The position numbers and the translations under genes are program-made. A stretch of 64,000 bases of DNA from IMG/VR virus record IMGVR_UViG_3300031555_001748, positions 11,376 through 75,375 of that record; one strand, written 5' to 3'. How positions within the stretch are numbered: the first letter of the stretch is position 1; the number at the start of each line of letters is the position of its first letter. A model generated the notes under the pieces. The model did no database searches, was not told where the DNA came from, and saw only the letters and a program-made list of their open reading frames with translations. This document shows, piece after piece, positions 1-55,996 of the stretch. This DNA is from a virus (Duplodnaviria; Caudoviricetes).

Positions 1-84
1 GATTCTATGGGATGAATTAGAGCGTCTTAATAAAGAATTTAAAGAACTGTAAGTATAAAAGAGACATTTTAAGCGGAGGAAATT

Positions 85-351
85 ATGGAAGAAAAAAGAA
101 TTGCAACAGATTGTAGAGATGTTCGTGGAACCTTGATTTACACAGGAGATTACATTTGTCTTGATGATGATGTTAAGAGGATATTTGATGTAGAAGATGG
201 CATTGTTCATTTTGTTCGTGGGATGTTTGTAGTGGGCGATGGCGGTTATCGTCATTCATTTGATGCTCTTGCCAGTTGGGATTATGTTATGCGTGGAGAA
301 GTCATTGGAAATATCTATGATAACCCAGAAATTTTAGAATATAAAAGATAA
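85..351 (+). CDS. YopX-family phage protein
   Basis: D..G.LIYTGD motif and C-terminal EVIGNIYDNPEIL. Confidence 0.75.
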   Translation: MEEKRIATDCRDVRGTLIYTGDYICLDDDVKRIFDVEDGIVHFVRGMFVVGDGGYRHSFDALASWDYVMRGEVIGNIYDNPEILEYKR

Positions 352-1346
352 ATTTTAAGTGGTGATTGTATGGATAAAGTTAATGCAGATGCAAAGGTAC
401 GAACTCTTTTGTATGGTTTTGAAAGAGAGAATGGTATTCGTCCCAATAGAATTATTATGGGATGTGATTTAGTGGATGAGCTGGCAAACCAATTCTATTA
501 TAACACTATTCCAATTAAAACCTTGGAAGAGATGGCAGAGATGCGAAAGCTTGGAGTAATATGTGAATATGAAGGAGTTCCAGTTAAAGTTGATTATGAT
601 AATCCCAATAACTTAGAGGTTGGATACATGGTCAAGTGGTTAGAAGCTAAGAAAGGTTGAACGGAAAATATGAAGAAGAAAATTATTCAATGGGCTATTG
701 GTTTTGCATATTCCGTTATGGGTGCTGGTAGCATTTTCTTTGTGGTTGCGTTAGTTGTAAACTTTATGGCAATGATGGAATCTACTGGCGGAGAATTCGT
801 TAAGTATTTTATTTCTTTTGTATTATGGCTACTTGCTTTTATATTCTATCCATACATAGTGTTTCATGAAACTAAAGACGGTGTTCGAGATAAATTTAAG
901 TAACAATTAAAAGACAGATTTTAAGAGGTAATAAATATGGAATTTAGTAAAGAAATTATTAATGTATTGGATTATTTATGCGGAAAGTTTGGCATTGTAA
1001 TTGATTGGACTTCGGACAATGTAATGCCGTATTTGGAAGATTTGTGTGGTCGATATATTAATTATGAGGTATATACAAGCATTGCTTGGTGCGTGGTTAT
1101 TGCAGCAATTGTCGTTGTGGCAGGATTGATTTGGGCAATCGGAAGTATTGCTAATAGATTCAGTCGCTCAAGGAATGATATCCCAGAGGTATTTAGTGTT
1201 ATTTTCTTTGCGTTTCTTGCAATTGGTTTTATTGTATGGACAGTTCAGGCATTTGATATTATCGAATGTTATACAATTCCCGAAAAGACAATCTTGGAAT
1301 ATTTAAAGCAGTTGATGAATAGTGCATCAAATAGATGATGTTTTGT

Positions 1347-1387
1347 AAAAGTTGCACAAAAACAAGTAAAGATTTTGTGCAACTTTT
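1347..1387. terminator. Intrinsic terminator-like 15-bp inverted repeat
   Basis: AAAAGTTGCACAAAA-N11-TTTTGTGCAACTTTT between the ORF ending at 1338 and the next promoter. Confidence 0.75.
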
Positions 1388-1412
1388 ATTATCAGAATAT
1401 TCAAATAGCTAC

Positions 1413-1441
1413 TTGACAAATGGAAATTATTGTGATATAAT
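1413..1441 (+). promoter_or_regulatory. Consensus sigma-A promoter
   Basis: TTGACA-17-TATAAT upstream of ORF 1472. Confidence 0.9.
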
Positions 1442-1751
1442 ATTCATAGGAAAACAAAGGAGGACACAATAATGACCTTAGTTGAACTGTTAGCAATGCC
1501 CAAGGGAATGAACCCCATAGAATACGAAAAGCTCTTAAAAGACAAACAGAAGTTGGAGAATCAGATTAGGAAAGCAAGCAATACTATCTTTGACGAGGAA
1601 GAAAGTTTGGATATTCTTGCAGATGAAGTTGGTAGCGAACGATATAATAAGCACTTGGCAAATAAGCAAAAGGCGGAAGCCAAAAGAGAAAAGGCTCAAG
1701 AAAAACTAGAACAGATTGAAAAGAAGTTAAATACATAAAGGAGAATTAATT

Positions 1752-2396
1752 ATGAATGTTATTGGCATGGCTCTGGAAGAACTGTATAGAATTTTTAACA
1801 TCCTGAATCGTGATAAGTTTGATGGAAGCCTGTCCGAACCTGTTATCACTATTCAGAAGACTAAGGGTAGAACGCTTGGGCATTTTACTCTGGATAGAAC
1901 TTGGCGTGATAAGAACAACGAAGAGTCGGAAGAAACCTCCTACTATGAAATCAATGTTGACCCTAGATGGTTTAACAGTCGCACTCCTGCCGAAGTTGCG
2001 GAAACTCTTCTGCATGAAATGGTTCATTACTACAATAAGGCAAATGACATTAAGGATTGTAGCGGTAACGTACATAATAAGAAGTTTAAGAATGCTGCGG
2101 AAAAAGTTGGTCTGATTGTTGAAAAGGGCAAGGGCGTTGGGTTTGGTTATACATCTATGTCTGAGGCTCTGAAAGCCTATATGGACGAAGTTGTCAAGCC
2201 TAATGAAGTAGCATTTGAATACTTTAGAACTGCTCCTATGAAGCTGTCTGGGGCTGGCGGAACAAGAAAGAAGAGCGTATTCAAGTACACTTGTCCTGAT
2301 TGTGGAGCGGAAGTAAAGGGCAAGAGAGATATGGTTATTAAGTGCGGTCTTTGTGATGTAGTTATGAAGATGGAAGATGTTGAATCGGAAGGTTAA
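1752..2396 (+). CDS. SprT-like zinc metalloprotease with C-terminal zinc ribbon
   Basis: ETLLHEMVH (HExxH), YH..KFK..A segment, CPDC...CGLC. Confidence 0.8.
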   Translation: MNVIGMALEELYRIFNILNRDKFDGSLSEPVITIQKTKGRTLGHFTLDRTWRDKNNEESEETSYYEINVDPRWFNSRTPAEVAETLLHEMVHYYNKANDIKDCSGNVHNKKFKNAAEKVGLIVEKGKGVGFGYTSMSEALKAYMDEVVKPNEVAFEYFRTAPMKLSGAGGTRKKSVFKYTCPDCGAEVKGKRDMVIKCGLCDVVMKMEDVESEG

Positions 2397-5300
2397 GAGG
2401 TAATGTTATATGGAAAATGCTACAATCGGAACAATTTATGCACTAAAGAATGGCGACAAATCGTTTGATGAAGTTGTTGCAGAATACTGGTCTAAGTATA
2501 CTGGCACTTCAATTGAAGCTTATGACGAAAGAACTTTGATGCGTATTTTACAAAATGTATTTCTGGATTATATCAGTACAGCAGATAATCCTAGATATGA
2601 AGTGTGGAGTTTGTTTGACAATATGTGGTTTGACTGTGACAGACTTTGTGAATCGAAAGACAGTTTTGATAAGAGAATTAGAAATGCTATCTATACAACT
2701 CTTATTCTCACAGATGTAAGAGATGGGAATGGATTTGTAAACGGGTTCAGAGAGATTTAAGAGGTAATAATGTATGGTAGAAAGATATTACAATGAGAAT
2801 GATGAACTTGGTGTGCTGATTAGCTATGATTATGGTGCTGGTTGGAGTACATGGAACGATAAAGAATTGGCATATGACAAGAGAATCGTAGAGAAGTGGC
2901 TTGAGGGAGTGTCTTCTTCTGAAATGTGCAACTTTGTTGAAAGTCTAGGATATAAGCGTCCTTATATGGGTGGTTATAAAAATTTACATTTAGAGTTTGT
3001 TCCTCGTGGCACATTGTTCATAATTGATGAATATGACGGATATGAGTCTATTGAAACAATTGAAGATATGGATATGATTGTAGCATAATGGAGGCAATAT
3101 TATATGAGAAGTTTTGAAGTATCGCAGCTTATTTCTGATTATGAAAGAGTACAGGAGAGCAGAAAGTGGATGAAAGAAATTCCTGCACTTCACTTTGAAA
3201 AAGAATGGGATGTCAGAATTATTCCTCCGTTTGGCGGAGCGGTAATTCGATTCTGGATTTGGCATAATGGTAAGAAGGTTTCTGTTTACTTCGACGCATA
3301 TTCCGAATTGGGATATATGTATGATGAAGATGATAATCCGATTCCTTACTTTGAATGTTACGATGGCGAAGATTGTCGCAGATACTACATGGATGAATCC
3401 GAGCAGATGATGGAAGATATTAAGAACTTCCTCAATAGTTAAGGTTATAAAAGTAAAGTTTTAAGTGGTGGAATATATGAGTAAAAAGAAAGCAGTTATT
3501 TGTACGATTATTTTTGCAATTATGGTTGTTGGCATTGGCATTGCATTTATGTTTGTAAAACCGTATGAAAGCGAAATGAGTTTGTTCCACGCTTTTTGTC
3601 CTTTCATTGTAGGACAATGGCTTAGTGAACGAATTGGCAAGTTTTATGATTGGCTAAGGAAGAACGATTAAAAGCAGAGTTTTAAGAGGTGGTACAAATG
3701 GTATATTTTGTAGAGTCGCTTCCGACAAGTTGTTTCTTTTGTGATTGCTGTCATACAAGAGAGTATGATAGTAGATACAAGATTGACGGAGAAAAGTTTT
3801 GTGGAATTGAAAACATGGAAGTGGGCGACTACTATGACCACAACAAGCATGACAGCTCTGGAAGACCGAAGTGGTGTCCTCTGAGAGAGATTATAGATGA
3901 AGCGCACTATCCGTCTTATAATAAAGGTTGGAATGATTGTTTGAATAAAATGATTAGTTTGTTAAGAACAGAGTTTTAAAAGGGTGAAAGATATGAAACC
4001 AGAAAATCATATAGCACATGAATCTGATGGATGTTATTGGACTGAAGTTGAAACAGCATTGGCAAACAATAGATATATTGGTGTAAAGATATCCAAAAGA
4101 GACATCGGACATTTGTTACAAGGAGAACATATCACATTATTGTTTTTGAACGATGATTATGAAGATAAAGGTATGATAGATATTAAACTATCAGATGACG
4201 AAACTGTGTTTGAAGTATCAGAAGAACTTAATCAGATGATGATAAATACATAAAAGAAGATTTTTAAGGAGAATTTATATGGCAAAAATTCATAAGGTAG
4301 AATTGTATTTGCTAGATGTCAATGAAGATTTTGATAGTTTGGATGATGCTCTAGTATACATGACTAATAGAAAATATGCCCCAGATGTACATGTGATTAA
4401 CTCTGAAAGCAAGGAATTTGAATGGGATGACGATGTAATTATCAATATGGTTAATTGCTCTACTGAGCAGTATAATAATTTCTTTGAAGAAATTTAAGTT
4501 TTGAATTTAAGGAGTATGATTATGACAGTTGAACAGATTGCAATTAGACAAGAAGTTAGACAGATGCTTAATGAAGCTGGCATTAATAAAAATACTTTGA
4601 AGGACATGGTTAAAGATGTTCTAAATGAAGAGCTTGAAAGAGCGGTTAAGCAAGCACTTAACGAAACAAATATAAGTGATAAAGTTAGCCGTTGCTTTCA
4701 CGATACTTTTAAGACCGTAATGAAAGAGGAAGTTCGTAGCAGAATTGTAAGTCCGTTTAATAGGATGCAGATTTCTGTAGATATTACAGACGAACACGGA
4801 ACAAGTTCGTTGGGCTAATAAAATTCTTGATTTAAGTGGTGAATGTATATGATGGGCAGATTTAACTACGGTACAATTGTTGACCGCAAGGCAGGAGAAA
4901 ATATTAAGAATAATGACATCTATATCTTAGACCCAGAAACAAGAGAGATTCGTAAGGCAAGGAATTGCGATGAATGGTTGACTTGCCAATTGGTTTATGT
5001 AAACAATATGCGTCTTGACAATGTTATTGATTTCGATATTAACAAAGGAGAGATGTGTCGTTGTTGGATTGGATATTTGTTGATTTAAGAGGTAAATGCA
5101 TATGAGATGGTTGATTAATTATTTTCGCTCTTGCTTCTGTAAACATGATTGGGAATTATTAAACAAAGCCAACATGTTTGGTGAAAGTACAACAATGCCA
5201 ATTGGAATGAAGTGGACTTATAGATGTAAAAAATGTGGATGGCATAAGATTATAAAGAATTATTGAATAATAAAATTCTCATTTTAAAAGAGGTAAATGT

Positions 5301-5774
5301 ATATGAATTGTTCTATTGAAATGCATCAGATTAAAGACATGGATGTAAAAATTAAAGTCCCTTGTGAGCATTGCTATAACAAAGGTATTGTAGATAAGAG
5401 ATGCAATAGATGTGGTGGCAATGGCACACACAATAAGACTATCAAGGTATGGAAGGTAATGCCTAGAACTGTAAAGGTTGATAAGATTGATAGAAGTTCC
5501 GAGAATAGTTTTTATTGTGGTGTTCAGACTGCTTATGTTGGTGGATTAAGATATTGGACTGGTGCTTCGGAATATTTTAATGAAGAAAGTAAGTTGTTGC
5601 ATTTTAGCAGTAAAGATGCACAAGCAGAATGCGATAGAAGAAATGCTGAGGTTGCAGATATTTTATTTATCAATAATTATAATGCAGTTATTAAAAAGAA
5701 AGAAGACGAAGAAGCAGATTGGCTTAACAATCTTTGATAACAGTTAAAATAGGATTTTTAAGAGGTAATTATAT

Positions 5775-6359
5775 ATGAAGAAAATTTTATCATTATTAAT
5801 TGTAATTATGATAATTGTCAATCTGTCGGCTTGTGGAAATGTAGCGAATACAGAAATCAACACTAAGACAGGTCGTGTTTATAAATGTGATTATAAGTCG
5901 TTAAACATAAACACGAAGATTACAACAATTCTTGACGGAGAAGAAATCAGTATATCTGGCAACATATTTAGATTGCTAACAGACCCTTTAACTGTAAAAG
6001 ATTCAAATGGGAACATTTTAGGTTATGCTGGCGATGTTTACGGCTTCATTTCACAGGATGACCATGGCATTTATATTGGAGAAGAGTTTGATGTTAATAT
6101 GTGTGGCAATATCGACCTATTTGGTGAGAGCTACGAATTAAAAAACTCAGATGGTGAAACTGTTGCTACTGTTGAATTTAATATGTCAAATACAGGTGGA
6201 AGCATTAGAGATACAAAGGGAAATTTGATTGCCGCATATTCGTCTTCTTATTTTATGAACGATTACACTGTAACGATTTATGATAATGACATTTGTTCTG
6301 ATATGTCAATCCTTATGATTGTAGCGTCATATGTATCAGATTATATGGCAGACAGATAA
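5775..6359 (+). CDS. Lipoprotein, LURP-one/tubby-C-like beta-rich domain
   Basis: Signal peptide with lipobox LSA-C; repeated 'V.DS.G..LG' / 'LKNSDGETVA' / 'IRDTKGNLIA' strands; C-terminal helix MSILMIVASYV. Confidence 0.6.
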   Translation: MKKILSLLIVIMIIVNLSACGNVANTEINTKTGRVYKCDYKSLNINTKITTILDGEEISISGNIFRLLTDPLTVKDSNGNILGYAGDVYGFISQDDHGIYIGEEFDVNMCGNIDLFGESYELKNSDGETVATVEFNMSNTGGSIRDTKGNLIAAYSSSYFMNDYTVTIYDNDICSDMSILMIVASYVSDYMADR

Positions 6360-7067
6360 AACAATATTTTTAAGAGGAAAAATATAAATGAGTTTAATAG
6401 GCTTAATTGGATTTATAATGACAATAACAGGAGATATATCGCCAGAACTTTTTACGGATGATGTGATGACTCAGTGGGCATTGTTTTCCATTGCAGATGC
6501 GCTGTGGATTAGGCTATTAAAGAAATAAAATAAGGTTTTTAAAGCTTAAGGGAGAAAAATTATGGTTAGAGGGATTTTGTTTACAGACAAAAGATTTGAT
6601 ACTAATAATCAAAATAATCAGCTAGACTTTCTTTCAGAAAACACTATCATCTTGTGCAACAACTATGATTTAATGGATACTCTTGCGGAAGAAATTATTA
6701 ATACTATTAATGGCAATGCAGAATATAACGATTATTGTTGTGACGAAGAGGATGTAGGCAAAGCAAAATATGAAATGTACTTTGGTCTACAGAGAGTAAT
6801 CGATATTAACGGACAGAAGATTATCTTGTGTCTTGAGCCAGCAATGATTTACAGAGCGAAGAAGATTGAGGAGATTTGGTTTTGCGACTGGATTGGTAAA
6901 GGCAAGTCTTATAAGGAGTCTATTTATCCTATGACCGTGTTTGTTGGCAGCGATGAAGTGTGGAATGATGGACTAGATAAAGTGTATAAGATGATTGTTA
7001 ATGGAAGATATGGATGTTATGACGGTAAATGGACTAAATTAGGAGAAGATTAAAAGAAAGGTTTTAA

Positions 7068-7424
7068 GTGGTTGGTATGAAGCTATGGATTGACGATGTT
7101 AGACCTGCACCAGAGGGTTATGTATGGTGCAAAAGTGTTAATGAAGCCAAAGAAGCAATTACCAGTGCTCAATCTAAATTTGTTAGGCTCTGGAAACAGG
7201 GTATTAATGACGAGTCTTTGCATATAGACTTGATTGATATCGACCATGATGCAGGTGACTATGTGAGCGATGGCGGAGACTACATCAAATTACTTGATTG
7301 GTTGGAATGGTTATACGATGGCAAAGGTACTTATACCAAGTTCCGTATCCATAGTATGAATCCTGTTGGTGTAGAAAATATGCGTAGGATTATTCAGAAG
7401 AATGGTTGGACTGAGGTAAGATAA
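7068..7424 (+). CDS. Cyclic-phosphate-processing receiver-like domain protein (likely start 7077)
   Basis: KLWIDDVRPAP, IDIDHDAG and IHSMNPVG motifs. Confidence 0.7.
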   Translation: MVGMKLWIDDVRPAPEGYVWCKSVNEAKEAITSAQSKFVRLWKQGINDESLHIDLIDIDHDAGDYVSDGGDYIKLLDWLEWLYDGKGTYTKFRIHSMNPVGVENMRRIIQKNGWTEVR

Positions 7425-9858
7425 ATGGAAGAATTGGAAGCTTTGATTGATGAATTGGGCAATATGTACGACGAGCTTGTTGCCAGAACATTGTCTCATA
7501 ATGTTATTATCGAAGATTATCACAAGTTTAGCTATAGCGAATTGTGCAATAAGATGATTGATACAATTAACGAAATTAGAAAGGGATAAACTATGAAGAA
7601 AGTTAGCGGCTATATCGATGTAAGGGCATTGGGATGCTATGACTTTGAGTTCTATGTAGATGATAATACTACGGAAGAAGAAATCAAAAAGAAGGTAGAT
7701 GAAGTGTGTGACTACAGCATTAGCTATGATGTGGAAGCTGGTTATGAAGAGTACACGGAAGTTCGCTATCGCAAGAAGCAGAACGATTGGTGGAACTATG
7801 AATAAAGGAATGACTAGGTGATTGATATGAAGCCTATATTTAAATGTGATTACTGTTCTAAGATGGGAACAGAAGAAGAAATTAGAGAGCACGAACCTAT
7901 CTGTACAGACAATTATGACAGAAAAAGTTGTTATACATGTGTACATAAAAAAACTAGATGTAAAGACAATATATCTGAAAAGAAAGTAACATGGATATAC
8001 GAATGTAAAGCTGGCAATGAAATTCCAGAAGGAAAAATTTTTGAATTTTGTCCGCAGTATGAAAGAAGAGAAAAGCCTTATACTTTGGGCGAAGCCATAT
8101 TCGATAATTTGTTCGATTTTGGATTATAAAAGAAGGATTTTAAGTTATGGAAATTATCTATGATTACAAAGCAGGAGAATACCATATTATCCTAAAGGAA
8201 GAAACTGAATTTTGTTTTAATACTGACAACATTTTTCAAACAAGAGAATGGTTTATTGAACAGATGACCAGAATGTTCGATGATACAGTTGGAGTTAAAT
8301 TTAAGAAAGAAATTTAATCGAGGTATATATGGAAGAGCGCAAGCGTGTATGCTGCAATTGTGGAAACAATATTCGTATTAGAGATGACAAAGACAATTTT
8401 GTTCGTTGTGAATGTGCTATTGACGGACATTATATTGGCTATATCGAATGCTTTGAACACTGGTGTAGACGATGGAAGAAAGATAGAAAATGGGATTAAA
8501 ATCAAGCTTTTATGAGGTAAAGTTATATGAAAGACATTTTAGATATTTTGGCAGAACCGATATATAAAACTGTAGCAAATGACTTGTCTGTTAATGGCGA
8601 GAATGATTTTGTTAGGGATGCGTATGCGTATGATATGACCACATTGGAAATCCTTAATTGGTATCGAAACCTTTATTATAAAGAAGGGATTGAAACAGAA
8701 AGAGGACTAATGGCTATGACTATCAATGATTTATTTACAAAATATAAAATTGAACCTCGATGAATTGTTTACAATTTATTCATAATGTGTTCATAATTGG
8801 ATTTTATAATAATAGTAGAAAATAAAACTAAGTCTTGCGAGGTAATATCATGATTGGAGAATCTTTCTGTGTATCAAAAGAACTGTTCCGCTGCGTTTAT
8901 ATTACGAAAGATAATGTGGAAGAATTCGTAGACAAATATGGCATAAGAGATGAATACGAAATATTTTATTCTGAATATTACGCCCATGTTGAATACAAGA
9001 AAGCAAAAATGAGATGGAATATTAGATTAAATGCTTTTATGGTTGATTATGGTTGGGATGGCGGATGGACAAGTTACACAAAAAAAGAATTTAATGAGTA
9101 TTTTGAAATAAAAAATTAAAATCGAGATTTTATGAGGTAAAAATATGGAAGTATTAATTATTATATTGGCACAGGTTTTTGCAATTTGCGTACACGCATA
9201 TTTGCTTTGGTGCGAAAAGAAATATTGTGGTCATTGTGACTGGTGGTGGGATACTGGCGCAATTATAAATCTTGTAATTAGTTTTGTCCCAATCTTGGGT
9301 TTGTTCGTTTCGATTGCAGGATGTGCTGATTATATGAGAAATGTTACGGAGGAATTAACCAAAGGTAGCAAATAAAAAGAATATTTTAAGAGGTAAAGTT
9401 ATAAGAAAGCGAGTAATGTAAAATGAAAGAAATATCTTTTAATGATTTTAGAGAAATGCTTTTATATAAAAGCGTTGTCGAATGGAACAAAAAAGAAAAC
9501 TATATAGTGCTTGACAATGGAATGAGAATCACTATTAAAATGACAGAAAGTGATTGTTGTGCTTATGCAAGTGGCGAATTTGAAGATGTAAAGTTGGAAG
9601 CTGTGATTACAGATGTTACCGAACCAAAGTATTCACCTTGGGAGGATTACGATACATATGGATGTTCCGCTGTTGTAAAAATGTTACACAATCAAAACTT
9701 AATTTGTAAGGTAAATGCAGATGCAGATGCAGGTAATGGTGGATATTATTTCTCTATTGCAAGTTTTATTGTAACATATAATGATTCTGAATTTTCTGTA
9801 TACCTTGTTGGCAGCGATGATGAAGCAAACTAACACTTAAAAAGTTTATTTTAAAGCA

Positions 9859-9891
9859 AACCTCCACAAAACCATATCTATTGTGGAGGTT
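9859..9891. terminator. Hairpin, possible terminator
   Basis: AACCTCCACAA-N11-TTGTGGAGGTT. Confidence 0.55.
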
Positions 9892-10970
9892 CAGTAAAAC
9901 AAATTAATATGGAGGAAACAGTTATGATGCTTGAAGCTGTATGGCTTAAGAACGGCAAGGAAGTTTACAAGGTTAGTCCAGTAGAAAATGTTGTGTGCTA
10001 TAAAGATATGGAAATTTCAGATATTGAAGTTGAAAGCACATACAGATGGCACGAATATAGCGATGTTGTTGGCGGAGCTGATGACTTTGTAATTAGAATT
10101 AAGAGGGATTGACAAATGACTGTATTTGATAGTGCTAAATCTAAGAATATTGATGAGCTTGTTGAATGGTTAGACAAGAATGGAGCATATGATTATACGC
10201 CTTGGGACAAATGGTTCGACAGAACTTATTGTAAGAAATGTGAAGCGGTAAAAGATTATGTGGATTACCTGCATGGAGAACATGAATTCTGTTGGTGTGA
10301 ACTACATAACAAATGCAGATTCTTTCAGGATATGGATAGAACTCCTAATAGAAAGCAAGTGATTAAACTTTGGTTGGAAAGCGAGGCAGAATAATATGAA
10401 TCAGTTTATTTCAGATATTAAGCATCATGTCCAGAGTTGGTTTGAATGGAAAGACATTTTGTCTTGGGCAAAAATTGTCCATCCTAGTTGGTATGAACTT
10501 GCAACACAGAGAAAGAGACCTGAAATTAGAGAGACATATCGCAAGAAGATTCTAAGAGAATATTATGAAAGATAAAAGGGGAGCAAATTATGGATATGTA
10601 TACCGCCACAGAACAGGCTTATAAGAATGGTTATGCAAAGGGATATGAGTGTGGTAGAGCCGAATATGAAAAGCTTGAAAAGAAAGTAAAGGCTCTTGAA
10701 AAGAGTAATCGAAATTGGAGAAGAAAGGTTCAGAAGCTTAGAAATAATTCTAAGAAAAATAATGATTTACAGAATTGAAATTCGACAATATCTTTCTTTG
10801 GTTGAAGTATGCGAAGCAGACGACATTCAGGAAATATTAGCATGGTACAGATGGAATTGGTATTCTGCATATGAAAATGGGTTATGCGTATTCCATGTAT
10901 ATAGATATGGGATAGAACTAACATTTGATGAATTGCATGAGTTCGGATTCTATACATAAGGAGGGCAACA

Positions 10971-11771
10971 ATGTCTAATCGTGGTGTAAAACCTTCAAAG
11001 ACTGACTTGCGAGATTATACTATTAAAGCTGGGAAGGTAAATACTAGAAGTTTTAACTTAAATAATTTACCTAAAGTTAAAAATCAATATATGGTAAATA
11101 GTTGTGCGGCTCATTCTGCAAGTTCTGTATTGGAATGGTTTAATCAAAAAGAAACAGGAGTATATCGTGAACTTTCTACTGGATTTATATATGGTATGCA
11201 GGGTGTGGAATTTAATCGCTTGAGTACCCACATGTATCTTAGAGATGTTTGTAAGATTATCCAGAAGTATGGCGATTGTTTGCATGATACTGTGTCGTTC
11301 AATGTGGAAATGCCTGAATGTTACAACAGATTAAAGAAAGTCTTAAATGAAGATGTGTATAATGAAGCGGCAATATGCAAGATTAAATCTTATGTTAGAT
11401 GCACAACTGATAATGCCATTAAGTATGCACTTATGAAATACAGTCCAGTGATTATGGCTGTTAAATGGCATGATAAATATGAAATATCTAACGATGGAGT
11501 TATTTGCTTTGATACTAATTCAAAGAATGGTTATCATGCAGTAATGGTATACGGATTCAATGAAAAGGGCTGGCTATGTCAAAATAGCTTTGGAAAGAAT
11601 TGGGGCAATGGCGGTAGATTTATTTTGCCATATGATTATGGGTTTGTGGAAGCTTGGAGCTTCGTAGATGACAAGAATTCTGGCGTACATAAACCGAAGC
11701 AGAACAAGATATTAAACGCAGCATATAAGACGGCCGGATTTGTTATTGATTTAATTAAGAACAATAGGTGA
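10971..11771 (+). CDS. Papain-like (C1) cysteine peptidase
   Basis: Q...NSC (oxyanion Gln and catalytic Cys), GYHAVMVYG (His), QNSFGKNWG..G (Asn). Confidence 0.85.
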   Translation: MSNRGVKPSKTDLRDYTIKAGKVNTRSFNLNNLPKVKNQYMVNSCAAHSASSVLEWFNQKETGVYRELSTGFIYGMQGVEFNRLSTHMYLRDVCKIIQKYGDCLHDTVSFNVEMPECYNRLKKVLNEDVYNEAAICKIKSYVRCTTDNAIKYALMKYSPVIMAVKWHDKYEISNDGVICFDTNSKNGYHAVMVYGFNEKGWLCQNSFGKNWGNGGRFILPYDYGFVEAWSFVDDKNSGVHKPKQNKILNAAYKTAGFVIDLIKNNR

Positions 11772-13124
11772 TTAAAAAACATATTTTAAGAGGTAGAGTA
11801 TGGATTATGAAGAATATAAGAAGGCTGGTTTACTTAAGAAATTAAAATATAGTAAATCAGACAGAAAGAAGTATAGAATTAATCCTGTTTTTAGATTTGA
11901 AGTGGATAAGGATAATTATTTATTTTCTTTCTTGCCGACTGTAATCTGGTGTCCTTGGATTTACAGATATAAAGGTTTTTATGTTGTTGATATTTGGTGG
12001 CTGCATTTTCATATTGCATTTGGCAAATGGGAAGAGCTTTCTTGTAGGAATTGCAAACACCAAGAAGAATGCATAAAGTCTAAGAGAGTTAATTGGTATG
12101 GCGATAATGTGTTTGAACAGGGAGAAAAGTGTTCTGACTTTGAATCAAAATATTAAGAGGTGTGCATATGAGATTTGTATTAAATGGTTGTGATATATCA
12201 TTTTTGGCAGAAGCACCAGAAGATATTACGCTTAAGCAGTTGCTAAAACAGTGTGATAAAATCAAGCCTGATTGGTGTGCTTGCGGCATCTGCTCTTATG
12301 AGAAAGCTGGATTTAACGAAAACCACGAACCAGAAATTATCATTGACTATGACAACATAAGAAAAGCAGACGATAGTGTTAGTTGTAGAATTGTAGAAAA
12401 TAACAGTTAAAAAGCGTATTTTAAGAGGTAAGTTTATATGAATAGAACAGATGTTTTAACTGGTCGCATTGTACAAAGAGTTATTGACGCAAAGACAAAA
12501 GACTGTGCAACTGTAAGAGTTGTTCATGGAGTAGATTATACTCGTGATATTAAAAGACTTGTAAACAACCTTTATAAATTCTTTCCTAATAGTTCGATTG
12601 AATTGAGAAAATTAAACTTCGGATATCATTTATCTATTACTGTTTATTATGAATAAAAGTACGTTTTAAAAGGTGGATAACTAATGGCATGTTGGGAATT
12701 TAAAGATATATATTATTTCGGCAAGCTTATTGGACATGCATGGTATTGCTCTAATTGCGAATATATTGGAATGAGTTATTCCCACATGATTCAGGAGTTC
12801 AGATGTGGAGTGCCATTTAGCAGACCTGTCTATAAGCATTGTCCAGAATGCGGTGAAGAAATGTTGACTGAATGATGAGGTGTATTATGAAAATTACTAA
12901 GACTATGCAAAAGGTTGCAGCGGATATCCTTATGGAGTTCATGTTTGCTCGTGATATGGATGAAGTAATTGAAACATACCAGAGAGTATTTGAGCGATAT
13001 GGTTTGTGTAGCGACCCATTTACAAGTTGTCCATGTACGCCAGACGAATGGTGTGATAGTCAGTTAGAGTATGAGAGACAGACAATGATTGAAAGATATG
13101 GTCATTGTGATGGATTAGAGTAAA

Positions 13125-13703
13125 ATGAAGGGGATATTATGTATGTTTAGAGCTAAGAAAGAAACAACTAGAGAAGATAATAATAGTGTCAATACTTATG
13201 AACTGCAAGTTGAGAATGAAAAGCTGAAGATTAAAGCAGAAACTTTACAGTTTAAGCTCGACCAAGCAAATGAAAAGTATTCTATTATTGAAAAGCAGCT
13301 TAAAGAGATTAAGGGTACAGATATTGAAAAAACCAAGGAAGAGAATGCTTCTTTGAAGAAAGAGCTTGCTGATTTAAAGTTTAAAATGGTAAACGATACC
13401 AAGAGCATTGAATTGGAAACAGAAAATAAGAAGTTGAAGTCACAGATTGATGTTCAGCAGTCAGAAAATGAACATTTAACAAAGTTACTTGATACATATA
13501 GAGCAATGCCAGATGTAAGGAACATGATTGATAACATGTCTAGTTTGGCAGTTCCTCATATGGACGAACTGAAAGAGTTTGCTAAAATGCTTTCAGATTC
13601 AAAGGTTGCAAAACTGTGCGATGAATTATCTAAGACGAATAATGTGATGAGAGAGACAAATGACTATCTTAATTATCAATTTAGAAGAGGAATGAATTTT
13701 TAA
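13125..13703 (+). CDS. Coiled-coil hypothetical protein
   Basis: Extended E/K/L heptads. Confidence 0.6.
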   Translation: MKGILCMFRAKKETTREDNNSVNTYELQVENEKLKIKAETLQFKLDQANEKYSIIEKQLKEIKGTDIEKTKEENASLKKELADLKFKMVNDTKSIELETENKKLKSQIDVQQSENEHLTKLLDTYRAMPDVRNMIDNMSSLAVPHMDELKEFAKMLSDSKVAKLCDELSKTNNVMRETNDYLNYQFRRGMNF

Positions 13704-47248: not shown

Positions 47249-47596
47249 GTCAATAACCACTTAAAATTCTAATTTTATAATGAGGTGTTTATATGAAGCT
47301 AAAAGAAGCTAGAAAGTCAGCTATTAAGTATTGTGAAGAAAACAATTGTAACTACACCTATATTTCACATGATAATGTTGAAGAATTTTATTTGACAGAC
47401 AAGGAGAACCAGCATACTGTATTTTTTGTAAATAAGAATGGCAGCTTAAATGCTTGTCGTACAACACAGTATGCAGTTGATTTCCATAAGGAATTGAAGA
47501 GGCGAAAGAAGAATCGAAGGAGCAATGGCAAGAAGAAGATTGCAGAAATGCTAAATCGTGATGACGAGGAAGCTGTAGGCTAATTGAGGTAAGGAA

Positions 47597-50960: not shown

Positions 50961-52032
50961 TCTTGTTGCGTATAAAATATAGATTTTAAGGTGGTGGCGA
51001 GTATCTTTAACATAAATATGGGATACATTGGAGACATTTTTGAAATGCATGAAGTTATCTTTGAAGTTTATGTGGAAGACAAACTAACCAACAGGCAGCA
51101 AATGCAAGCTCCTAAACAAATGCTGATAGCTAATTTTATAGAAACTGCAAAGAGAATTAAAAACGACAAAAGACCAATTAAGATTAAAATGATTAAACCA
51201 GAAATTATTTGGGACACCTTTGAACAAAAGCAAAAGGTTCTAAATAATGAAATTGAATTAGGCAACAATGCAATGGTTGCTTGGGAAGAAAGTAAAAAAG
51301 AGGTGTAAGACCATGAAGGTATTAAAAGATAATTATAATAAGACCGTTGTTGATGAAGTAATTGAAATGTCAAAGCCATATCCTCGTAAGCATATTTGCG
51401 ATAGTTGTTTATCTGAGCTGGAGTATGAAGAATCTGACCTGTATATGGGTGCATATGGCTGTATGCATTTGGATTGTACGCTGTGTGGTGAAGACAATAT
51501 GCTTGACCCACATGAAAAGAATATTGTATTAACCAAAGACAACATTGAATTCCCCACACATTTCCATCATGTGTGCGTAGAAAACGGTGCTGTTGAGTGT
51601 TGTGAAGAGTATTTTAAGGAATATATCAATAAGGCTATTGATTATTTGAGAAAGCATAAGGGCGAAACGGACTGGGGCGGACATATTACTGGCAACTTTT
51701 ATATTAATGTTCACAAATGGAGCGGCGATAAACTGTATGATGTGACTGTTAGCAGAGATTTCTATACTATGGAAATCCCATTTGAAGAAGCAGATTATAA
51801 CGATGAAGATTGGTTTGATTGATTTATGATATACCATGAAAACGGATGTGTAGATTGTGGCTTGCCGTGTTTACTTACATCATGTCCTCATTACAAAGTA
51901 ATGCATTCTAAGTGTGATTTTTGTCACGACATAGATATAAAATTATATCATTACAATGGTTATGAAATATGTGAAGAATGCCTTCTTAAAGAATTTGAAG
52001 TGGTTGATGGAACCGATGATTGGTGTTGATAA

Positions 52033-52795: not shown

Positions 52796-52808
52796 GGTTA
52801 TATAAGGA

Positions 52809-53681
52809 GTGCATAATATGAACAAGGCAGACAATTATATCAAGGAGCAGATTGAAAGAATCTTAGCATATGGTTACAAAGACGAGAATCCTCGTCCTAA
52901 ATATGCAGACGGTTCTCCTGCATTTACATATTCTATCAATGGCAATTTTAGAAGCTATGATTTATCTAAGGGTGAGTTCCCAATTACAACACTCAGACCT
53001 ATTGCATGGAAGAGTGCAATTAAGGAAGTCCTCTGGATTTATCAAGACCAAAGTAATGATTTAAATATGCTCAGAGATAAGTACGGTGTTAACTATTGGA
53101 ATGAATGGGAGTCCAAAGACATCCCTAACACAATTGGAGTTCGTTATGGAGAAATTGTTCGTAGACATAAACTGATGGACAGACTGCTTGATGGTCTAAT
53201 TAACGACCCATTTGGTCGCAGACATATTATTGACCTATACCAGTACACAGATATGAACGAATCCGATGGTTTGAATCCCTGTGCCTTTTGTACGATTTGG
53301 AATGTAAGAGATGGCGTGGATGGCAAGTATCTAGACTTGTCTTTGATTCAGAGAAGCGGAGACCTAATGGCAGCTTCTTGTTCTGGCGTTAATGAAGTGC
53401 AGTATGCGGCATTACTTATGATGGTGGCTAGACATTGCGGTTATAAGGCTGGAGTACTTTATCACTATGTTGCTAACGAGCAAATTTATACAAAGCATGA
53501 AGAGTCAGCGAAAGAATTGTTAAATAGATATTTAATTCTTGAGAACAAAGAATGTCCATCTAAACCAATGCTAGTTATTAATTCTGACAAAACTAATTTC
53601 TATGATTTTGCCATAGATGATTTTACAATGGAAAATTACGAACCAATGAAACCGCAAATCAAATTTGAATTGGGCATATAA
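52809..53681 (+). CDS. thyA: Thymidylate synthase (likely start 52818)
   Basis: FP..TLR, E..WI, RRHI, LNPC (catalytic Cys), QRSGD, GVN (dUMP-specificity Asn retained), IY..H. Confidence 0.95.
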   Translation: MHNMNKADNYIKEQIERILAYGYKDENPRPKYADGSPAFTYSINGNFRSYDLSKGEFPITTLRPIAWKSAIKEVLWIYQDQSNDLNMLRDKYGVNYWNEWESKDIPNTIGVRYGEIVRRHKLMDRLLDGLINDPFGRRHIIDLYQYTDMNESDGLNPCAFCTIWNVRDGVDGKYLDLSLIQRSGDLMAASCSGVNEVQYAALLMMVARHCGYKAGVLYHYVANEQIYTKHEESAKELLNRYLILENKECPSKPMLVINSDKTNFYDFAIDDFTMENYEPMKPQIKFELGI

Positions 53682-53683
53682 AT

Positions 53684-54418
53684 ATGGGTAGACAAAAAGT
53701 TAATTTAATTGGTAAAACATTTACACGTTTGAATGTAATAGATGTTGACGAAATTAAAACAACTCAGAAAAAGAGAACCTACTATTTCTGTCAATGCGAA
53801 TGCGGTAACACAGTATCCGTCATGTCATCGCAACTACTTAATGGTCACACAAAATCTTGTGGTTGCTTACAAAAAGAAAGCGTCAGAAAACTAAATCAAA
53901 ATAAAAAGAAATATAACCAATATGATTTGACATCGCAACAATTCGGAATTTGTTATGCAAGTAACACTAAAGAAGAAATTCTGTTTGATAAAGAAGATTA
54001 CGAACTTATAAAAGACTATTGTTGGAGAATTGACGCTTATGGATATGTAGTCACCAGCGTTAAAAATGAATCAAGTGGCAAATATAATAAAATTATTAAA
54101 TTGCATCAACTATTATCACCATGTTTGAATAATTATGTTATAGACCATAAAAATGGAAATAAACTTGACAATCAAAAACATAACCTAAGAATATGCCTTC
54201 AAAGTGATAATACAAAAAATCATATAACGTACAAAACAAGTACAACAGATGTTAGTGGTGTTACTTGGAATAAAGAAAAACAAAATTGGAGAGTTCGAAT
54301 AGGGAAAGATATAAGTGTAGGCTCTTTTGTTAATTTTGACGACGCTGTAAATGCAAGAAAGAAAGCGGAAGAAAAATACTTTGGAGAATACAGTTATGAT
54401 AATAGTAGGCAAGATTGA
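53684..54418 (+). CDS. Free-standing HNH homing endonuclease with AP2-like C-terminus
   Basis: YFCQCECG...L.NG.TKSCGC; IDHKNGNKLDNQKHNLR; GV.W......W...I. Confidence 0.9.
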   Translation: MGRQKVNLIGKTFTRLNVIDVDEIKTTQKKRTYYFCQCECGNTVSVMSSQLLNGHTKSCGCLQKESVRKLNQNKKKYNQYDLTSQQFGICYASNTKEEILFDKEDYELIKDYCWRIDAYGYVVTSVKNESSGKYNKIIKLHQLLSPCLNNYVIDHKNGNKLDNQKHNLRICLQSDNTKNHITYKTSTTDVSGVTWNKEKQNWRVRIGKDISVGSFVNFDDAVNARKKAEEKYFGEYSYDNSRQD

Positions 54419-54644
54419 GAGGGTGGCTAAGATGGCTATTTTAATGACTGTAAAAGAACTAATGTCACGCATTGAAGACAATGATTCTAAATGGGTGACT
54501 TTGGTTACGGCATGTTCTGGACATGAAGTATATAATAATTGGTATTTTAATTGTCCGTATGAAATGAAGGAATGTGATGTAACCTCTATTAAGATTGAAG
54601 AGAAAGACCATATTGTTTTATATGTTTTATAAGAGGTGTAAATT

Positions 54645-55178
54645 ATGATTGTATTGGTGGGAGAATCGGCATCTGGTAAATCCAGCATTGAAAAGTATCT
54701 TGTAGATAATTACGGATACAATAAAGTTGTGTCATATACGACTAGAAGCCCAAGACCAAATGAAGTTGATGGTGTAGATTATCATTTTATTAGTGTAGAA
54801 GAATTTAAATCTTTAAAAGAGCAAGGCTTCTTTGCTGAGACAGCAATATATAATGAATGGAATTATGGCACTGCAAAAGAAGATTGTACAGATGACAAAG
54901 TTGCAGTTCTTACTCCACATGGACTTCGACAGATTTCTAAGATTAACGGTATTAATGTAATTTCATTTTATATCAATGTTCCTCGAAGAGATAGACTTAT
55001 TAAAATCCTTCAGCGTGGAGACAATATAGAGGAAGCTTATCGAAGAAGTCTATCCGATGTCGGTCAGTTCGATGGAATTGAAGATGAAGTTGATTATGTA
55101 ATTTATAATGATGGATATAAATATTCGGTTAAGCAAATGACCGAAACTGTTTACAACATAGTTAATCCAGCTTTTTAA
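54645..55178 (+). CDS. gmk: Guanylate kinase
   Basis: GESASGKS, SYTTR.PR..EVDGVDYHF, YGT. Confidence 0.92.
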   Translation: MIVLVGESASGKSSIEKYLVDNYGYNKVVSYTTRSPRPNEVDGVDYHFISVEEFKSLKEQGFFAETAIYNEWNYGTAKEDCTDDKVAVLTPHGLRQISKINGINVISFYINVPRRDRLIKILQRGDNIEEAYRRSLSDVGQFDGIEDEVDYVIYNDGYKYSVKQMTETVYNIVNPAF

Positions 55179-55996
55179 TTAAAAATAACTAATAATGTTA
55201 TACGGTTAATGTTTGTATTTATGGACATTAACACCGTTTTAGTCCATTTTATTGGACAGAATAAAACTGAGATTTTAAGAGGTGAAATAGATATGACAGT
55301 TTATAAATATGGATTATCAAATACAATAGAAGCAATTGAGGAAGCTTTGGAAAATGCTTTGAATACAAAAAATAAAAGCGAGAAAGCAAGATATATTGGC
55401 GAAGCATATGGAATGGTTAAAGCAATTGATTTTATCTTTGACGATAAAAGCGACGAAGAATCTGAAGAGACTTAAATTTTAAGAGGTAATTATGGGATAT
55501 TGTAAATACAAATTGCCATGTGGTAAATGCGAAAGATATGACAGGGATTGTGATGCTCCGAAATATAACGATTCAAAAGAATGCGAACACGACTGGGAGC
55601 CGATGGATTTTGAGTTTAATAAAGATGCTTTAAGTTTTCACTGCGTTTGTCGTAAGTGCAATACGACAGAAATATTGCCTATGGATTATTTCTTAAACAA
55701 AGTAAATAATGTTGCTGATATTACGAATGAAATATTTAGAACTTAAACTTTAAGTGGAGATTATATTATGGGTTATATTATAACATTTATGATTGGCTTT
55801 ATTGTTGGCGCTTCTGTTATGGCAGTCCTCGCAGTTAGTGGAGCTGCTGATAGGGAGCAAGAGGCGTATAATGCAGGATATAGCGAAGGATATAATAAGA
55901 GTATTAAAAAGGATAATGATGTCAATAACGCATAAAATTTTAAGTCGCTGGATACAATAATGTTAGACATCAGGACTGCTTGTACACCAACGTAAA

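Follow-up and report, generated by a model that had tools for sequence, protein, structure and literature searches.

Ordered, position-specific TAAAA-N6-TTTTA cores as candidate recombination linkers in the accessory-gene arrays of an SPbeta-like phage of gut Clostridia

Introduction

SPbeta-like temperate phages carry genes for a large serine integrase, for a repressor with an integrase fold and, beside a ParB-like gene, for an orphan tyrosine recombinase, and between their small accessory genes, just after the stop codon, lies a short palindromic core, TAAAA-N6-TTTTA. The same features recur in the phage analysed here, an uncultured SPbeta-like temperate phage of gut Clostridia, although the identity of its proteins to those of SPbeta is marginal. 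Other differences are that the host lineage belongs to the Clostridia of animal guts, that the arrays are two to three times denser, that the Shine-Dalgarno (SD) sequence abuts the core instead of lying 15-30 nt away as in SPbeta, and that an array of ~20 kb separates the recombinase and ParB-like genes from the repressor gene. A search of the literature found no paper describing a TAAAA-N6-TTTTA junction linker of SPbeta-like phages. The SPBRE/MrpR (SroF) system of SPbeta is built on a repeated A/T-tract element bound by an integrase-fold repressor (PMC10516654; 10.1101/2025.11.27.690993), of which a predicted homologue is encoded here. SPBRE boxes are asymmetric, occur in ~10 promoter regions and are each read by a monomer, whereas the cores are palindromic, roughly five times more numerous and located away from promoters.

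An initial annotation of this DNA knew of no description of such an arrangement in phages, a statement not supported in view of two published analogues. In T4-type phages, the hyperplastic regions of small non-essential genes contain short, conserved modules between genes, the promoter-early stem-loop (PeSL) cassettes, and recombination between these modules accounts for the genes inserted, deleted and replaced among relatives (Arbiol et al. 2010; PMC2839356). PeSLs consist of a sigma-70 promoter and a terminator hairpin and do not differ from copy to copy within a genome; in contrast, the cores show no excess of promoter-like matches over shuffles, their hairpin is unstable, and each copy has a unique, conserved and orthogonal spacer. 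The SAS/ESAS of Cluster K mycobacteriophages (PMC3203893), like Cluster A stoperators, resemble the cores in containing or abutting an SD, a few bases before non-structural start codons and in one orientation. SAS/ESAS are conserved before unrelated gene families, and ESAS add an inverted repeat with a spacer; their sequences are unrelated to the core, the spacer varies from 4 to 13 bp, and no position-specific spacer code has been reported.

Site-specific recombination offers a further set of comparisons. Integrons, like the arrays described here, hold promoter-less single-gene units in one orientation, with a recombination-type site between them and very high cassette diversity. The integron attC site belongs to and moves with its cassette, measures 57-141 bp and is recognised as a folded single strand; the site described here belongs to a position, spans 16-28 bp and does not fold. 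With Xer/dif and Cre/lox the cores share inverted arms around a 6-bp centre, A- or T-rich arm ends, and a tyrosine recombinase, catalytically complete by alignment, encoded nearby. The 11-6-11 Xer geometry and A/T-rich inner arms that the initial annotation had mentioned are indeed in the literature, where difH and difSL have inner arms GAAAA...TTTTC (PMC5357621). Xer acts at one site per genome, as against ~50 cores here, each with 5-6 invariant bp per arm and a right arm that is also an SD.

Results

The window, the whole stretch of 64,000 nucleotides that was analysed, contains 39 exact copies of TAAAA-N6-TTTTA where 1.0 is expected (shuffles: mean 1.00, sd 0.97, largest 4), and the whole 75-kb contig (G000) contains 47. 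This shuffled-control count confirms the earlier figure of at least 38 copies against about one expected, and the reported distribution was reproduced: 27 copies in 56-18257, 8 in 31161-36279 and singles at 47262, 50973 and 55262, with an additional copy at 58692 and the one claimed N5-spacer variant at 12654. Core genes had been said to lack the motif, in agreement with the absence of cores from 18258-31160 and 36280-47261, where DnaB-like, AAA_24, RecD2, LigA and RNR genes were confirmed. In MAG bins of 2-3.6 Mb, the motif with an SD is almost confined to the phage contig.

Each core carries its own hexamer, which we call a barcode. Array 1 (56..18257, + strand) has 27 cores among ~75 small + strand ORFs, with the barcodes, in order, GAGACA, GATAAA, GACAGA, GTAAAG, GCAGAG, GAAGAT, TTCTCA, TAGGAT, CAATAT, TAAGGT, GAAAGG, GAAGGA, TCAAGC, TCGAGA, AGAATA, AGTTTA, AACATA, AGCGTA, TACGAA, ACAAAC, ATAAAA, ATAGAG, ATGAAG, ATATAC, ATTATA, ACTTAA and ACATAG. 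The last of these (18242..18257, +) has a full left arm, ACCACT, and no SD on its right, and is kept in nearly all relatives, 130-290 bp 5' of a repressor-like gene. The 8 cores of array 2 (31161..36279, +; TGGTGA, TTACGA, TTGCAG, GTTTAA, CTAACA, CAGGGA, CAAAGA and TAAAGG) flank a Vut_1 transporter pair, a PD-(D/E)XK nuclease and small ORFs. Single cores on the + strand are TTCTAA (47262..47277), again with left arm ACCACT; TATAGA (50973..50988); and CTGAGA (55262..55277), which is followed by an SD and ATG and is also found in G003 and in a second contig of one MAG bin. The extra core TTGTTA (58692..58707, no strand assigned) is intergenic, upstream of a serine recombinase gene.

Cores lie between small accessory genes, after a stop codon and before the next ribosome-binding site (RBS), in a single orientation relative to the genes. 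In the window, an SD follows within 13 nt at 32/39 sites and a start codon 8-24 nt 3' of the core at 36/39, while the upstream frame is terminated by the core's own TAA at 17 sites and by a stop no more than 10 nt upstream at 14 others. A purine ends the spacer in 87% of sites. The arms had been described as extending symmetrically, a description that is correct in part: ACCACT-TAAAA is present at 18242 and 47262, as are TAACA.T-TAAAA variants, and the right-hand extension AAG(A/T)GGT is the SD of the downstream gene. The left flank mirrors it weakly (C at -4, 2.9x background; A at -6, 1.6x), C at -5 is not enriched, and the left and right arms show no covariation. Folded as RNA, the stem of 5 bp is not stable (+0.6 kcal/mol), which favours a site in duplex DNA, and random 28-mers fold better than this region. 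The invariant arms, at 5-6 bp each with a weak left outer arm, count against a linker, and an expression signal would likewise be consistent with how tightly the cores are phased with stop codon and SD.

The barcodes recur as identical hexamers in identical order in 11 related phage contigs, and those of array 1 are common to, and collinear with, the relatives. Over 12 genomes or contigs, 17/9,937 order comparisons were discordant, all 17 involving G005. G000 has 28-39 barcodes in common with each of G001, G003, G006, G007 and G008, and 18 with G005. Exact retention among relatives ranges from 44 to 94%. In 7 core genes nearby, identity at four-fold synonymous sites is 41-49% (saturated), a level at which 0.4-1.3% of hexamers evolving neutrally would be expected to remain unchanged. 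Barcodes within a genome also avoid one another: in G000, 3 pairs have one mismatch or none against 14.6 expected (P about 3e-4), and 6 other genomes show the same depletion. Pairs with exactly 2 mismatches are in excess, and adjacent barcodes are more alike than chance. The N6 is thus under constraint, site-specific and not free. It does differ at every site, as first noted, but its supposed freedom is at odds with its conservation across relatives; conservation and mutual orthogonality together argue that spacer identity matters, contrary to the suggested tolerance of non-matching spacers. SPbeta, phi3T and BUCT083 have 22, 16 and 20 cores, respectively, against 0.6 expected, and each pair shares 11 barcodes with 0 order conflicts and differing flanks.

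Outside the 16-bp core conservation falls sharply, and flanks at same-barcode sites reach random identity (~30%) leftwards from -2 and rightwards from about +30. The genes themselves turn over almost completely: 29 barcodes were present in 5 or more genomes, and the ORFs that come first after them, 194 instances in all, fall into 178 protein families. The slot from ATAGAG to ATGAAG (15265..15566, +) is occupied in G001, L138 and G006 by a two-ORF cassette that is 97% identical among the three and differs from that of G000. Its homology extends from the first T of core 1 (offset 0) to +22, 6-7 nt past core 2, with unrelated DNA on both sides; other shared segments begin at core offsets -2, -3 and -9. 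In the SPbeta family, 21/69 internal HSP ends fall at a core versus about 4% by chance. In both groups, these ends of shared cassettes support the proposal that variable accessory genes are delimited by cores at which recombination breakpoints fall. Among homologous cassettes >80% identical, 76% occupy the same slot, while homologous ORFs sit in different slots in 38% of pairs overall and in 76% of pairs below 40% identity. Integron-like shuffling, as originally envisaged, does not agree with a core that keeps its position and spacer while the ORFs on both sides change; we rejected integron behaviour because the core does not move along with its ORF.

Breaks also occur at gene boundaries that lack the motif. 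Within the arrays, motif-less boundaries showed 462 breaks and 26 continuities versus 330 and 11 at motif boundaries (OR 1.7, P 0.17), and adjacency was kept across 4/19 motif versus 27/55 motif-less boundaries (P 0.057), a marginally weaker linkage at the motif. At gene starts that lack the motif, some being half-sites with the right arm, a shared RBS is followed by a break precisely at the ATG, which points to ORF-precise exchange independent of the core and leaves room for short-homology recombination. In some cases the RBS is kept together with the barcode and not with the ORF that follows, and G001 has an extra ORF with a copy of the same 20-bp RBS segment on either side. The similar break frequency without the motif and the retention of the RBS by the barcode both count against a linker.

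An intact tyrosine recombinase had been proposed to lie elsewhere in the genome, and a search found a 265-aa protein encoded just upstream of the window (G000:9075-9872; PF00589 match 6e-19). Its R, HxxR, H and Y align with those of XerA, its best solved relative, so that it is judged catalytically intact, with a short N-terminal part of ~60-85 residues preceding the catalytic domain, unlike Xer. It is present in every clade genome covering its region. It is a candidate catalyst for the sites, and its distribution counts against this role: it is encoded in the array-poor relative G009 (58% identity, only 12 cores), and no copy was detected in G004 (87% complete), a genome that still has 12 cores carrying shared barcodes. 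The large serine recombinase (56849..58483, - strand; Resolvase, Recombinase and Zn_ribbon_recom) is probably the prophage integrase, which leaves the tyrosine recombinase without an integration role. Adjoining the latter is the gene for a GmrSD_N/DUF262 protein, presumably of ParB-like fold. The repressor-like integrase-fold protein (18532..19479, +; 315 aa) has no Pfam match; its AF2 model (pLDDT 75.6) finds as best Foldseek matches SroF-DNA (9rd5, E 6e-9) and MrpR (8a0a, E 1e-7), and hhalign against phi3T SroF gives 93% probability (E 2.5e-7). Judged by model and profile, it is related to the SPbeta-type repressors SroF/MrpR/YopR. A better candidate than the core for its operator is TAAC-N7-GTTATA, present at 20753..20769 (+) and at 24520, 42234, 52786, 55186, 58750 and 58807 (7 sites); those at 20753 and 24520 lie directly downstream of a consensus -35/-10 promoter.

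Discussion

We consider it probable that the cores are recombination linkers, ordered and mutually orthogonal, through which cassettes are exchanged in register, with the 265-aa recombinase as the favoured candidate catalyst. A competing account, which we consider unlikely although it deserves serious attention, keeps the in-register exchange and assigns it to a general or phage-encoded homologous or single-strand-annealing system, for which 16-25 bp of identity (core plus SD) would be the minimal homology and the palindrome would have another purpose or none. Short shared homology suffices in the explanation proposed for PeSL cassettes; the phage encodes a PD-(D/E)XK nuclease, an AAA_24 ATPase, whose SPbeta homologue is annotated Sak4-like, and RecD2; and the junctions at shared RBS-ATG stretches, the duplicated RBS segment in G001 and the like break frequencies with and without the motif all fit. 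Orthogonality is itself compatible with homologous recombination, as one mismatch would cut the longest perfect run below the typical minimal pairing length. Such exchange leaves the invariant inverted arms and strict 6-bp spacing unexplained, however, and the drop in conservation outside the core leaves it ~16-23 bp of identity, no more than the minimum that homologous pairing usually requires. Between phi3T and SPbeta, moreover, a homology block reaches no further than the left arm TAAAA (offset +4), beyond which the barcodes differ, leaving 5 bp shared, too little for homologous pairing.

Accounts in which exchange is a by-product fare less well. It is rather improbable that the cores are protein-binding regulatory sites silencing the accessory arrays in the lysogen, whether as roadblocks or operators for the SroF/MrpR-like repressor or as parS-like loading sites for a ParB/Srx-like DUF262 protein. 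Cores precede accessory genes and never core genes, the repressor homologue is encoded right after array 1, the DUF262 protein adjoins the recombinase as in the parallel SPbeta operon yopP-yopQ(ParB_N_Srx)-yopR (PMC8612738), array-poor relatives have ~12 cores, a count typical of operators, and MrpR binds its repeated element at ~10 places (PMC10516654); some SPbeta ATAAAA-N6-TTTTAT cores even lie just 5' of an SroF-box-like sequence (10.1101/2025.11.27.690993). Yet regulatory sites predict a free spacer instead of conserved, ordered and orthogonal ones, the 26-bp box bound by SroF is asymmetric and is occupied by a monomer, MrpR ChAP-seq reported ~9-10 peaks (PMC10516654) where we count roughly 27 SPbeta cores, and the classical operator position downstream of consensus promoters is taken by TAAC-N7-GTTATA. 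Highly improbable, in our judgement, is an action on mRNA, with the core as an SAS/ESAS-like translation or processing signal whose A/U-rich leader and SD boost or couple small-gene translation. Its fixed phase (a stop in or just before the left arm, an SD 1 nt after the core, ATG 9-16 nt later), its single orientation, the purine bias and the similarly placed Cluster K elements (PMC3203893) would suit such a signal; the unstable hairpin and the lack of arm covariation would not, the 15-30 nt from core to SD in SPbeta means that SD coupling is not conserved, and position-specific, orthogonal spacers are given no reason. We give almost no credence to an integron-like array whose cassettes excise as circles and re-insert at any site. 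Homologous ORFs do sometimes change slot, and the likeness of adjacent barcodes is expected if insertion duplicates the site, but barcodes belong to positions and not to ORFs, their order is almost perfectly conserved, near-identical barcodes are avoided, and no attC-like folded site is present.

In the linker model that we favour, related phages would swap the DNA between cores by crossover inside the 16-bp core. The catalyst may be the tyrosine recombinase, acting as Cre does on heterospecific lox sites, which the spacer-defined choice of partner recalls. Barcodes at least two mismatches apart within one genome would prevent deletions between different cores, and a right arm doubling as an SD would allow an incoming cassette to be translated without a signal of its own. 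With matching limited to cores of the same barcode, register and scaffold order would be kept while the gene content of each slot changes, and the cores would thus serve as fixed, position-specific junction linkers, together providing the ordered scaffold on which a hypervariable set of small accessory (early) genes is arrayed.

The core motif and its place between genes

The palindrome TAAAA-N6-TTTTA is present in 39 copies in the window, against 1.00 ± 0.97 in shuffled sequences, and in 47 copies in the whole 75-kb source contig (G000). The site coordinates reported in the initial annotation all hold, and one further copy lies at 58692. Among 5-N6-5 palindromes this is the most enriched in the phage genome and its relatives, and three MAG bins, 2.2-3.6 Mb in size, carry it on phage contigs only. 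We refer to the 16-bp sequence as the core, to its central hexamer as the barcode, to the DNA between two consecutive cores as a slot, to the ORF or ORFs filling a slot as a cassette, and to a run of cores and small ORFs as an array.

The 5-bp arms and the 6-bp spacing of the core are invariant, with W at positions -1 and +16. The upstream stop codon is the left-arm TAA itself at 17 sites and lies at most 10 nt upstream at 14 others. Of the 39 sites, 32 are followed within 13 nt by a Shine-Dalgarno (SD) sequence, and 36 have a start codon 8-24 nt beyond the core. The right-arm extension AAG(A/T)GGT, which had been read as part of a recombination arm, is indeed there, but this stop/SD/start geometry identifies it as the ribosome-binding site. 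The outer right arm is AGWGGT, which the outer left arm mirrors partly and weakly: relative to background, C at -4 is enriched 2.9-fold and A at -6 1.6-fold, and C at -5 shows no enrichment. Longer palindromes, of 9-11 bp, occur at a few sites (18242 and 47262 in the window, and 97817 in the related genome G009). The mean folding energy of the 5-bp A/T stem as RNA is +0.6 kcal/mol, which makes a self-folding hairpin unlikely; an RNA hairpin or extended stem was rejected on this ground, because the sites fold worse than random 28-mers, and because a search for pairwise covariation between left and right flanks found none. A sigma-70 promoter at each core was likewise rejected, since no conserved -35/-10 signal surrounds the cores; promoter-like matches number 84 versus 93 in shuffles, and terminator-like matches 7 versus 4.7. 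The whole contig of one relative, G005, is also enriched in AAAAA-N5/6/7-TTTTT (38-46 copies versus 4 expected), a second, A-tract/T-tract motif of which none was seen in G000.

The phage and its relatives

The source contig of 75,375 bp is classed as viral in IMG/VR, with an estimated completeness of 53%; the window spans its bases 11376-75375. The window encodes a DnaB-like helicase, an AAA_24 ATPase, RecD2, an NAD-dependent ligase and a class II-type ribonucleotide reductase, as well as a large serine recombinase (56849-58483, minus strand; Resolvase, Recombinase and Zn_ribbon_recom domains) that is 93% identical in the related genome G003 and is likely to be the integrase, as in SPbeta. 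The intergenic region upstream of its gene holds one core and two TAAC-N7-GTTATA sites, a second motif considered below. The serine integrase and the type of repressor lead us to infer an uncultured, temperate phage of SPbeta-like type; a 20 kb query compared by megablast with cultured phages gave no match. Related contigs of 100-160 kb come from MAG bins labelled Clostridia and Lachnospiraceae and from two odd bins, the sources being yak caecum and faeces. The clade is present in rumen, yak and faecal metagenomes.

Two genes of the replication region deserve mention. The window DnaE (36673-39933) is closest to the DnaE of Clostridium phage c-st, at 56% amino acid identity, and shares only 33-34% identity with the polymerase that G003 and G005, both close relatives, encode at this position, compared with 80-89% for the adjoining RecD2; what seems to have been replaced is the gene for the replicative polymerase itself. 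The conserved replication module also includes a class-V aminotransferase (21527-22678; cysteine desulfurase-like, PF00266, E 9e-57), which is 64-73% identical in relatives.

Barcodes are conserved, collinear and distinct

We compared 12 genomes and contigs, comprising IMG/VR contigs rich in the motif followed by an SD sequence, together with metagenome and MAG contigs. A hexamer of its own marks every site, and relatives repeat the hexamers in the same order. The impression that the spacer simply varies from site to site therefore gives way to a different one, in which it is not free: it is site-specific and conserved in relatives. The 134 distinct barcodes include 67 found in at least two genomes and 34 in at least five, and barcode order was discordant in 17 of 9,937 comparisons, all 17 of which involve G005. 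This conservation is set against ancient divergence, with protein identities of 63-75% for seven neighbouring core genes. Since four-fold synonymous sites are only 41-49% identical, an intact hexamer would be expected under neutrality in 0.4-1.3% of cases; exact retention of the G000 barcodes is 44-94%.

Barcodes within a genome also avoid near-identity. In G000, column shuffles give 14.6 pairs with at most one mismatch and the actual barcodes three (P about 3e-4). Six other genomes show this depletion too, and there is an excess of pairs at exactly two mismatches. It is this depletion that is significant; the lack of duplicate barcodes alone is not, about 1-1.5 being expected. Adjacent barcodes resemble each other above chance, which suggests that sites may be born by local duplication and then diverge until distinct. 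Taken together, conservation, collinearity and the avoidance of near-identity provide indirect indications that recombination partners may be chosen by barcode identity.

A more distant phage of 140 kb, G004, carries short runs of the same barcodes at 32020-35913 and 76524-77166, with AACATA, ACAAAC, ATAAAA and ATAGAG in one block and GTAAAG, GCAGAG and GAAGAT in the other. One block runs in the direction opposite to the other, which suggests a block inversion.

Cassette turnover and breakpoints

What lies between conserved barcodes is highly variable. The flanks of sites with the same barcode show only random ungapped identity (about 30%), to the left starting at -2 and to the right starting at about +30. 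The ORFs that come first after 29 barcodes, each found in five or more genomes, fall into 178 families among 194 instances. The slot GACAGA-GTAAAG measures 2,540, 532, 1,232 and 796 bp in four genomes. Homologous cassettes nevertheless tend to keep their slot, in 62% of cases overall and in 76% when more than 80% identical. Recognised products include a SprT-like protease, a papain-like peptidase and a Vut_1 family transporter (PF02592, E 2e-39); the last, with an adjacent 254-aa ORF lacking a Pfam match (together 31232-32574), forms a two-gene unit lying exactly between cores TGGTGA and TTACGA.

The proposal that the sites are boundaries at which cassettes recombine is supported by where homology ends. 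In slot ATAGAG-ATGAAG, a two-ORF cassette is common to three relatives (G001, L138 and G006), where its copies are 97% identical; homology runs from the first T of the first core to 6-7 nt past the second, and the DNA beyond is unrelated at both ends. The left outer arm goes with the upstream neighbour, and the right arm and ribosome-binding site with the downstream neighbour, placing both crossovers within the cores (16-19 bp). Offsets of -2, -3 and -9 relative to the core mark the start of other shared blocks, and the mapped breakpoints fall inside the core or at its edges.

Cores are not the only places where homology breaks. Inside slots it often stops exactly at the ATG after a shared ribosome-binding site, and some junctions are right-arm half-sites. 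Breaks within arrays are about as frequent at boundaries that carry the motif as at those that lack it (odds ratio 1.7, P 0.17, not significant); where the genes on both sides of a boundary have homologues elsewhere, they remain adjacent in 4 of 19 cases with the motif versus 27 of 55 without it, a marginal difference (P 0.057). Within the clade, about 35-40% of high-identity HSP ends lie at cores, which is not above expectation if all ends fall at gene boundaries. Two junctions illustrate breaks of this second kind. At window 2396-2420, the 22-nt junction after the SprT-like gene consists of stop, SD and ATG with no palindrome; it recurs in G001, G006 and G008, four unrelated ORFs stand behind it in the four genomes, and homology stops exactly at the ATG. 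Opposite window 5271-5306, G001 (8485-8942) has an extra ORF of ~420 bp between direct repeats of AAAGAGGTAAATGTATATGA, a 20-bp ribosome-binding-site segment, and the palindromic core is not duplicated; gain or loss of this ORF was ORF-precise, through the ribosome-binding site and not the core.

The same cores in SPbeta-like phages

SPbeta-like Bacillus phages carry exact cores as well: 22 in the 84-134 kb region of SPbeta, versus 0.6 expected, 16 in the corresponding region of phi3T and 20 in that of BUCT083. They lie between accessory genes, right after stop codons and 15-30 nt from an SD sequence. Each pair of these phages has 11 barcodes in common with zero order conflict, and at most of the shared-barcode sites one or both flanks are non-homologous. 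Internal HSP ends fall between -15 and +30 of a core in 21 of 69 cases, versus about 4% by chance, with typical offsets of -6, 0, +15 and +21. In the literature on SPbeta that we examined, including PMC10516654 and PMC8612738, the palindrome is not mentioned.

In one comparison, of SPbeta 87599 (position 3599 of L197, the SPbeta region) with position 15523 of L198, the phi3T region, the homology block stops after the left arm TAAAA, at offset +4; the barcodes that follow are TTGAAG in SPbeta and AGACTG in phi3T. AGACTG is the next SPbeta site, 801 bp downstream of TTGAAG, so that the joint falls where arm meets spacer and connects two sites that are not the same. At SPbeta 113664, 132747, 111029 and 116415 (L197), a sequence resembling the SroF box of phi3T (…GAATAAAAATAAAAT…) comes about 10 nt or less after cores of the form ATAAAA-N6-TTTTAT; some SPbeta cores thus abut the repressor's SPBRE.

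A candidate recombinase and its neighbours

The initial annotation had suggested a search of the rest of the genome for an intact RHRY recombinase, and one is encoded just upstream of the window (G000:9075-9872). This 265-aa tyrosine recombinase (PF00589, E 6e-19) has LRASDL, HSLR, NHS and LRY motifs that align with the catalytic residues of XerA (R, HxxR, H, Y). Since a serine recombinase is also present, it is left without an assigned role. Adjoining it is a GmrSD_N/DUF262 protein, a type with a ParB/Srx-type fold, and both genes are conserved in G001, G005, G006-G008 and L126. The recombinase is not a clean marker of arrays: the array-poor G009 has it with only 12 cores, at about 2 kb from the repressor-like gene, where G000 has 20 kb of array between the two, and a search of G004 (87% complete) found no homologue, 12 cores with familiar barcodes being kept.

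The repressor-like gene (18532-19479, plus strand) encodes a 315-aa protein with no Pfam match (AlphaFold pLDDT 75.6). In structure it most resembles the integrase-fold repressors SroF (9rd5, E 6e-9), MrpR (8a0a) and YopR, with XerA and Cre ranking behind them; a profile of 20 homologues matches phi3T SroF with 93% probability, and tblastn against cultured phages gave no match. The three genes parallel an SPbeta operon of yopP (XerC-like), yopQ (ParB_N_Srx) and yopR (MrpR) (PMC8612738), a gene order that we checked in phi3T. Within the trio only the repressor has clear sequence homology to its SPbeta-type counterparts: the tyrosine recombinase matches phi3T YopP at family level only (25% identity, E 0.001), and the DUF262 protein shows no significant sequence similarity to phi3T YopQ (E 0.18).

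Discussion

The reading best supported by these sequence comparisons is that related phages exchange cassettes in register, with crossovers inside matching cores. A more specific form of it, which we put forward tentatively as one possibility, is a natural recombinase-mediated cassette exchange in which a YopP-like tyrosine recombinase of the phage would act on about 50 heterospecific cores per genome to make in-register swaps. Orthogonal 6-bp overlap sequences would forbid intragenomic deletions, co-infecting or resident SPbeta-like phages would swap single accessory-gene cassettes in register, and the outcome would be an ordered, population-wide 'plug-board' of anti-host genes. A length threshold in homologous recombination could also produce this barcode pattern, and the breakage of motif-less RBS-ATG junctions speaks for short-homology recombination; the inverted arms, a spacer of strictly 6 bp, the sharp drop in conservation outside the 16 bp and the presence of an intact, orphan enzyme favour the recombinase. 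A sticky-end model, in which a nuclease cutting interrupted palindromes would act with the phage LigA, was set aside, its support amounting to the presence of LigA and a PD-(D/E)XK nuclease.

Regulatory readings have also to be weighed. A repressor homologue is encoded. The cores, which are palindromic, do not lie at promoters, and another motif does. TAAC-N7-GTTATA occurs seven times in the window, versus 0.23 expected, always on the plus strand (20753, 24520, 42234, 52786, 55186, 58750 and 58807), and in 11 forward and 7 reverse copies in G009. The copies at 20753 and 24520 stand directly downstream of consensus TTGACA/TTGAAA-17-TATAAT promoters, the classical position of an operator. SroF binds as a monomer, and its 26-bp box is asymmetric. 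MrpR binds roughly 10 SPBRE sites (PMC10516654), close to the seven copies of this second motif. Because the second motif fits in position and number and the SroF box is asymmetric, we consider the cores less likely to be repressor operators. They may be binding sites of the ParB-like protein. An ordered, orthogonal spacer code is left unexplained by every regulatory reading.

The proposed in-register exchange at the cores can be compared with known systems. The integron analogy drawn in the initial annotation is not supported: each site belongs to its position, and the spacers make up a code that is conserved, collinear and orthogonal. An integron attC moves with its ORF, whereas here one barcode precedes many ORF families and the flanks on its two sides are unrelated; attC is recombined as a single-stranded hairpin of 57-141 nt, in contrast to a 16-bp core with an unstable stem and flanks that do not covary. 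IntI, an integrase with a characteristic extra domain that is encoded beside attI and Pc, is longer than the 265-aa recombinase found here, which is known by its Pfam Phage_integrase match and its alignment with XerA. PeSL elements combine a strong sigma-70 early promoter with a terminator stem-loop, neither of which is found at the cores; as with PeSL, recombination between copies accounts for gene replacement among relatives, but the exchange is one between copies at the same position in different genomes. Xer/dif and lox sites have inverted arms of about 11-13 bp around a 6-8 bp centre, compared with 5-bp invariant arms and a 6-bp centre here, and, as in those systems, the element encodes a candidate cognate recombinase of the R..HxxR..H/W..Y type.

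The accessory regions of phages are where anti-defence and host-takeover genes gather, and they turn over rapidly without scrambling the genome. In this group of phages a scaffold of such turnover can be seen in dozens of 16-bp junctions whose middle 6 bp behaves as an address code, and the old 'linker' idea of modular phage evolution is thereby revived in a concrete, testable form. As SPbeta and phi3T are genetically tractable and carry the same cores, the hypothesis can be tested directly there. If a recombinase reads the code, this would be the first natural counterpart of engineered cassette exchange with heterospecific lox or FRT sites. The barcodes also provide a coordinate system with which hypervariable phage gene arrays can be compared and mined in metagenomes.
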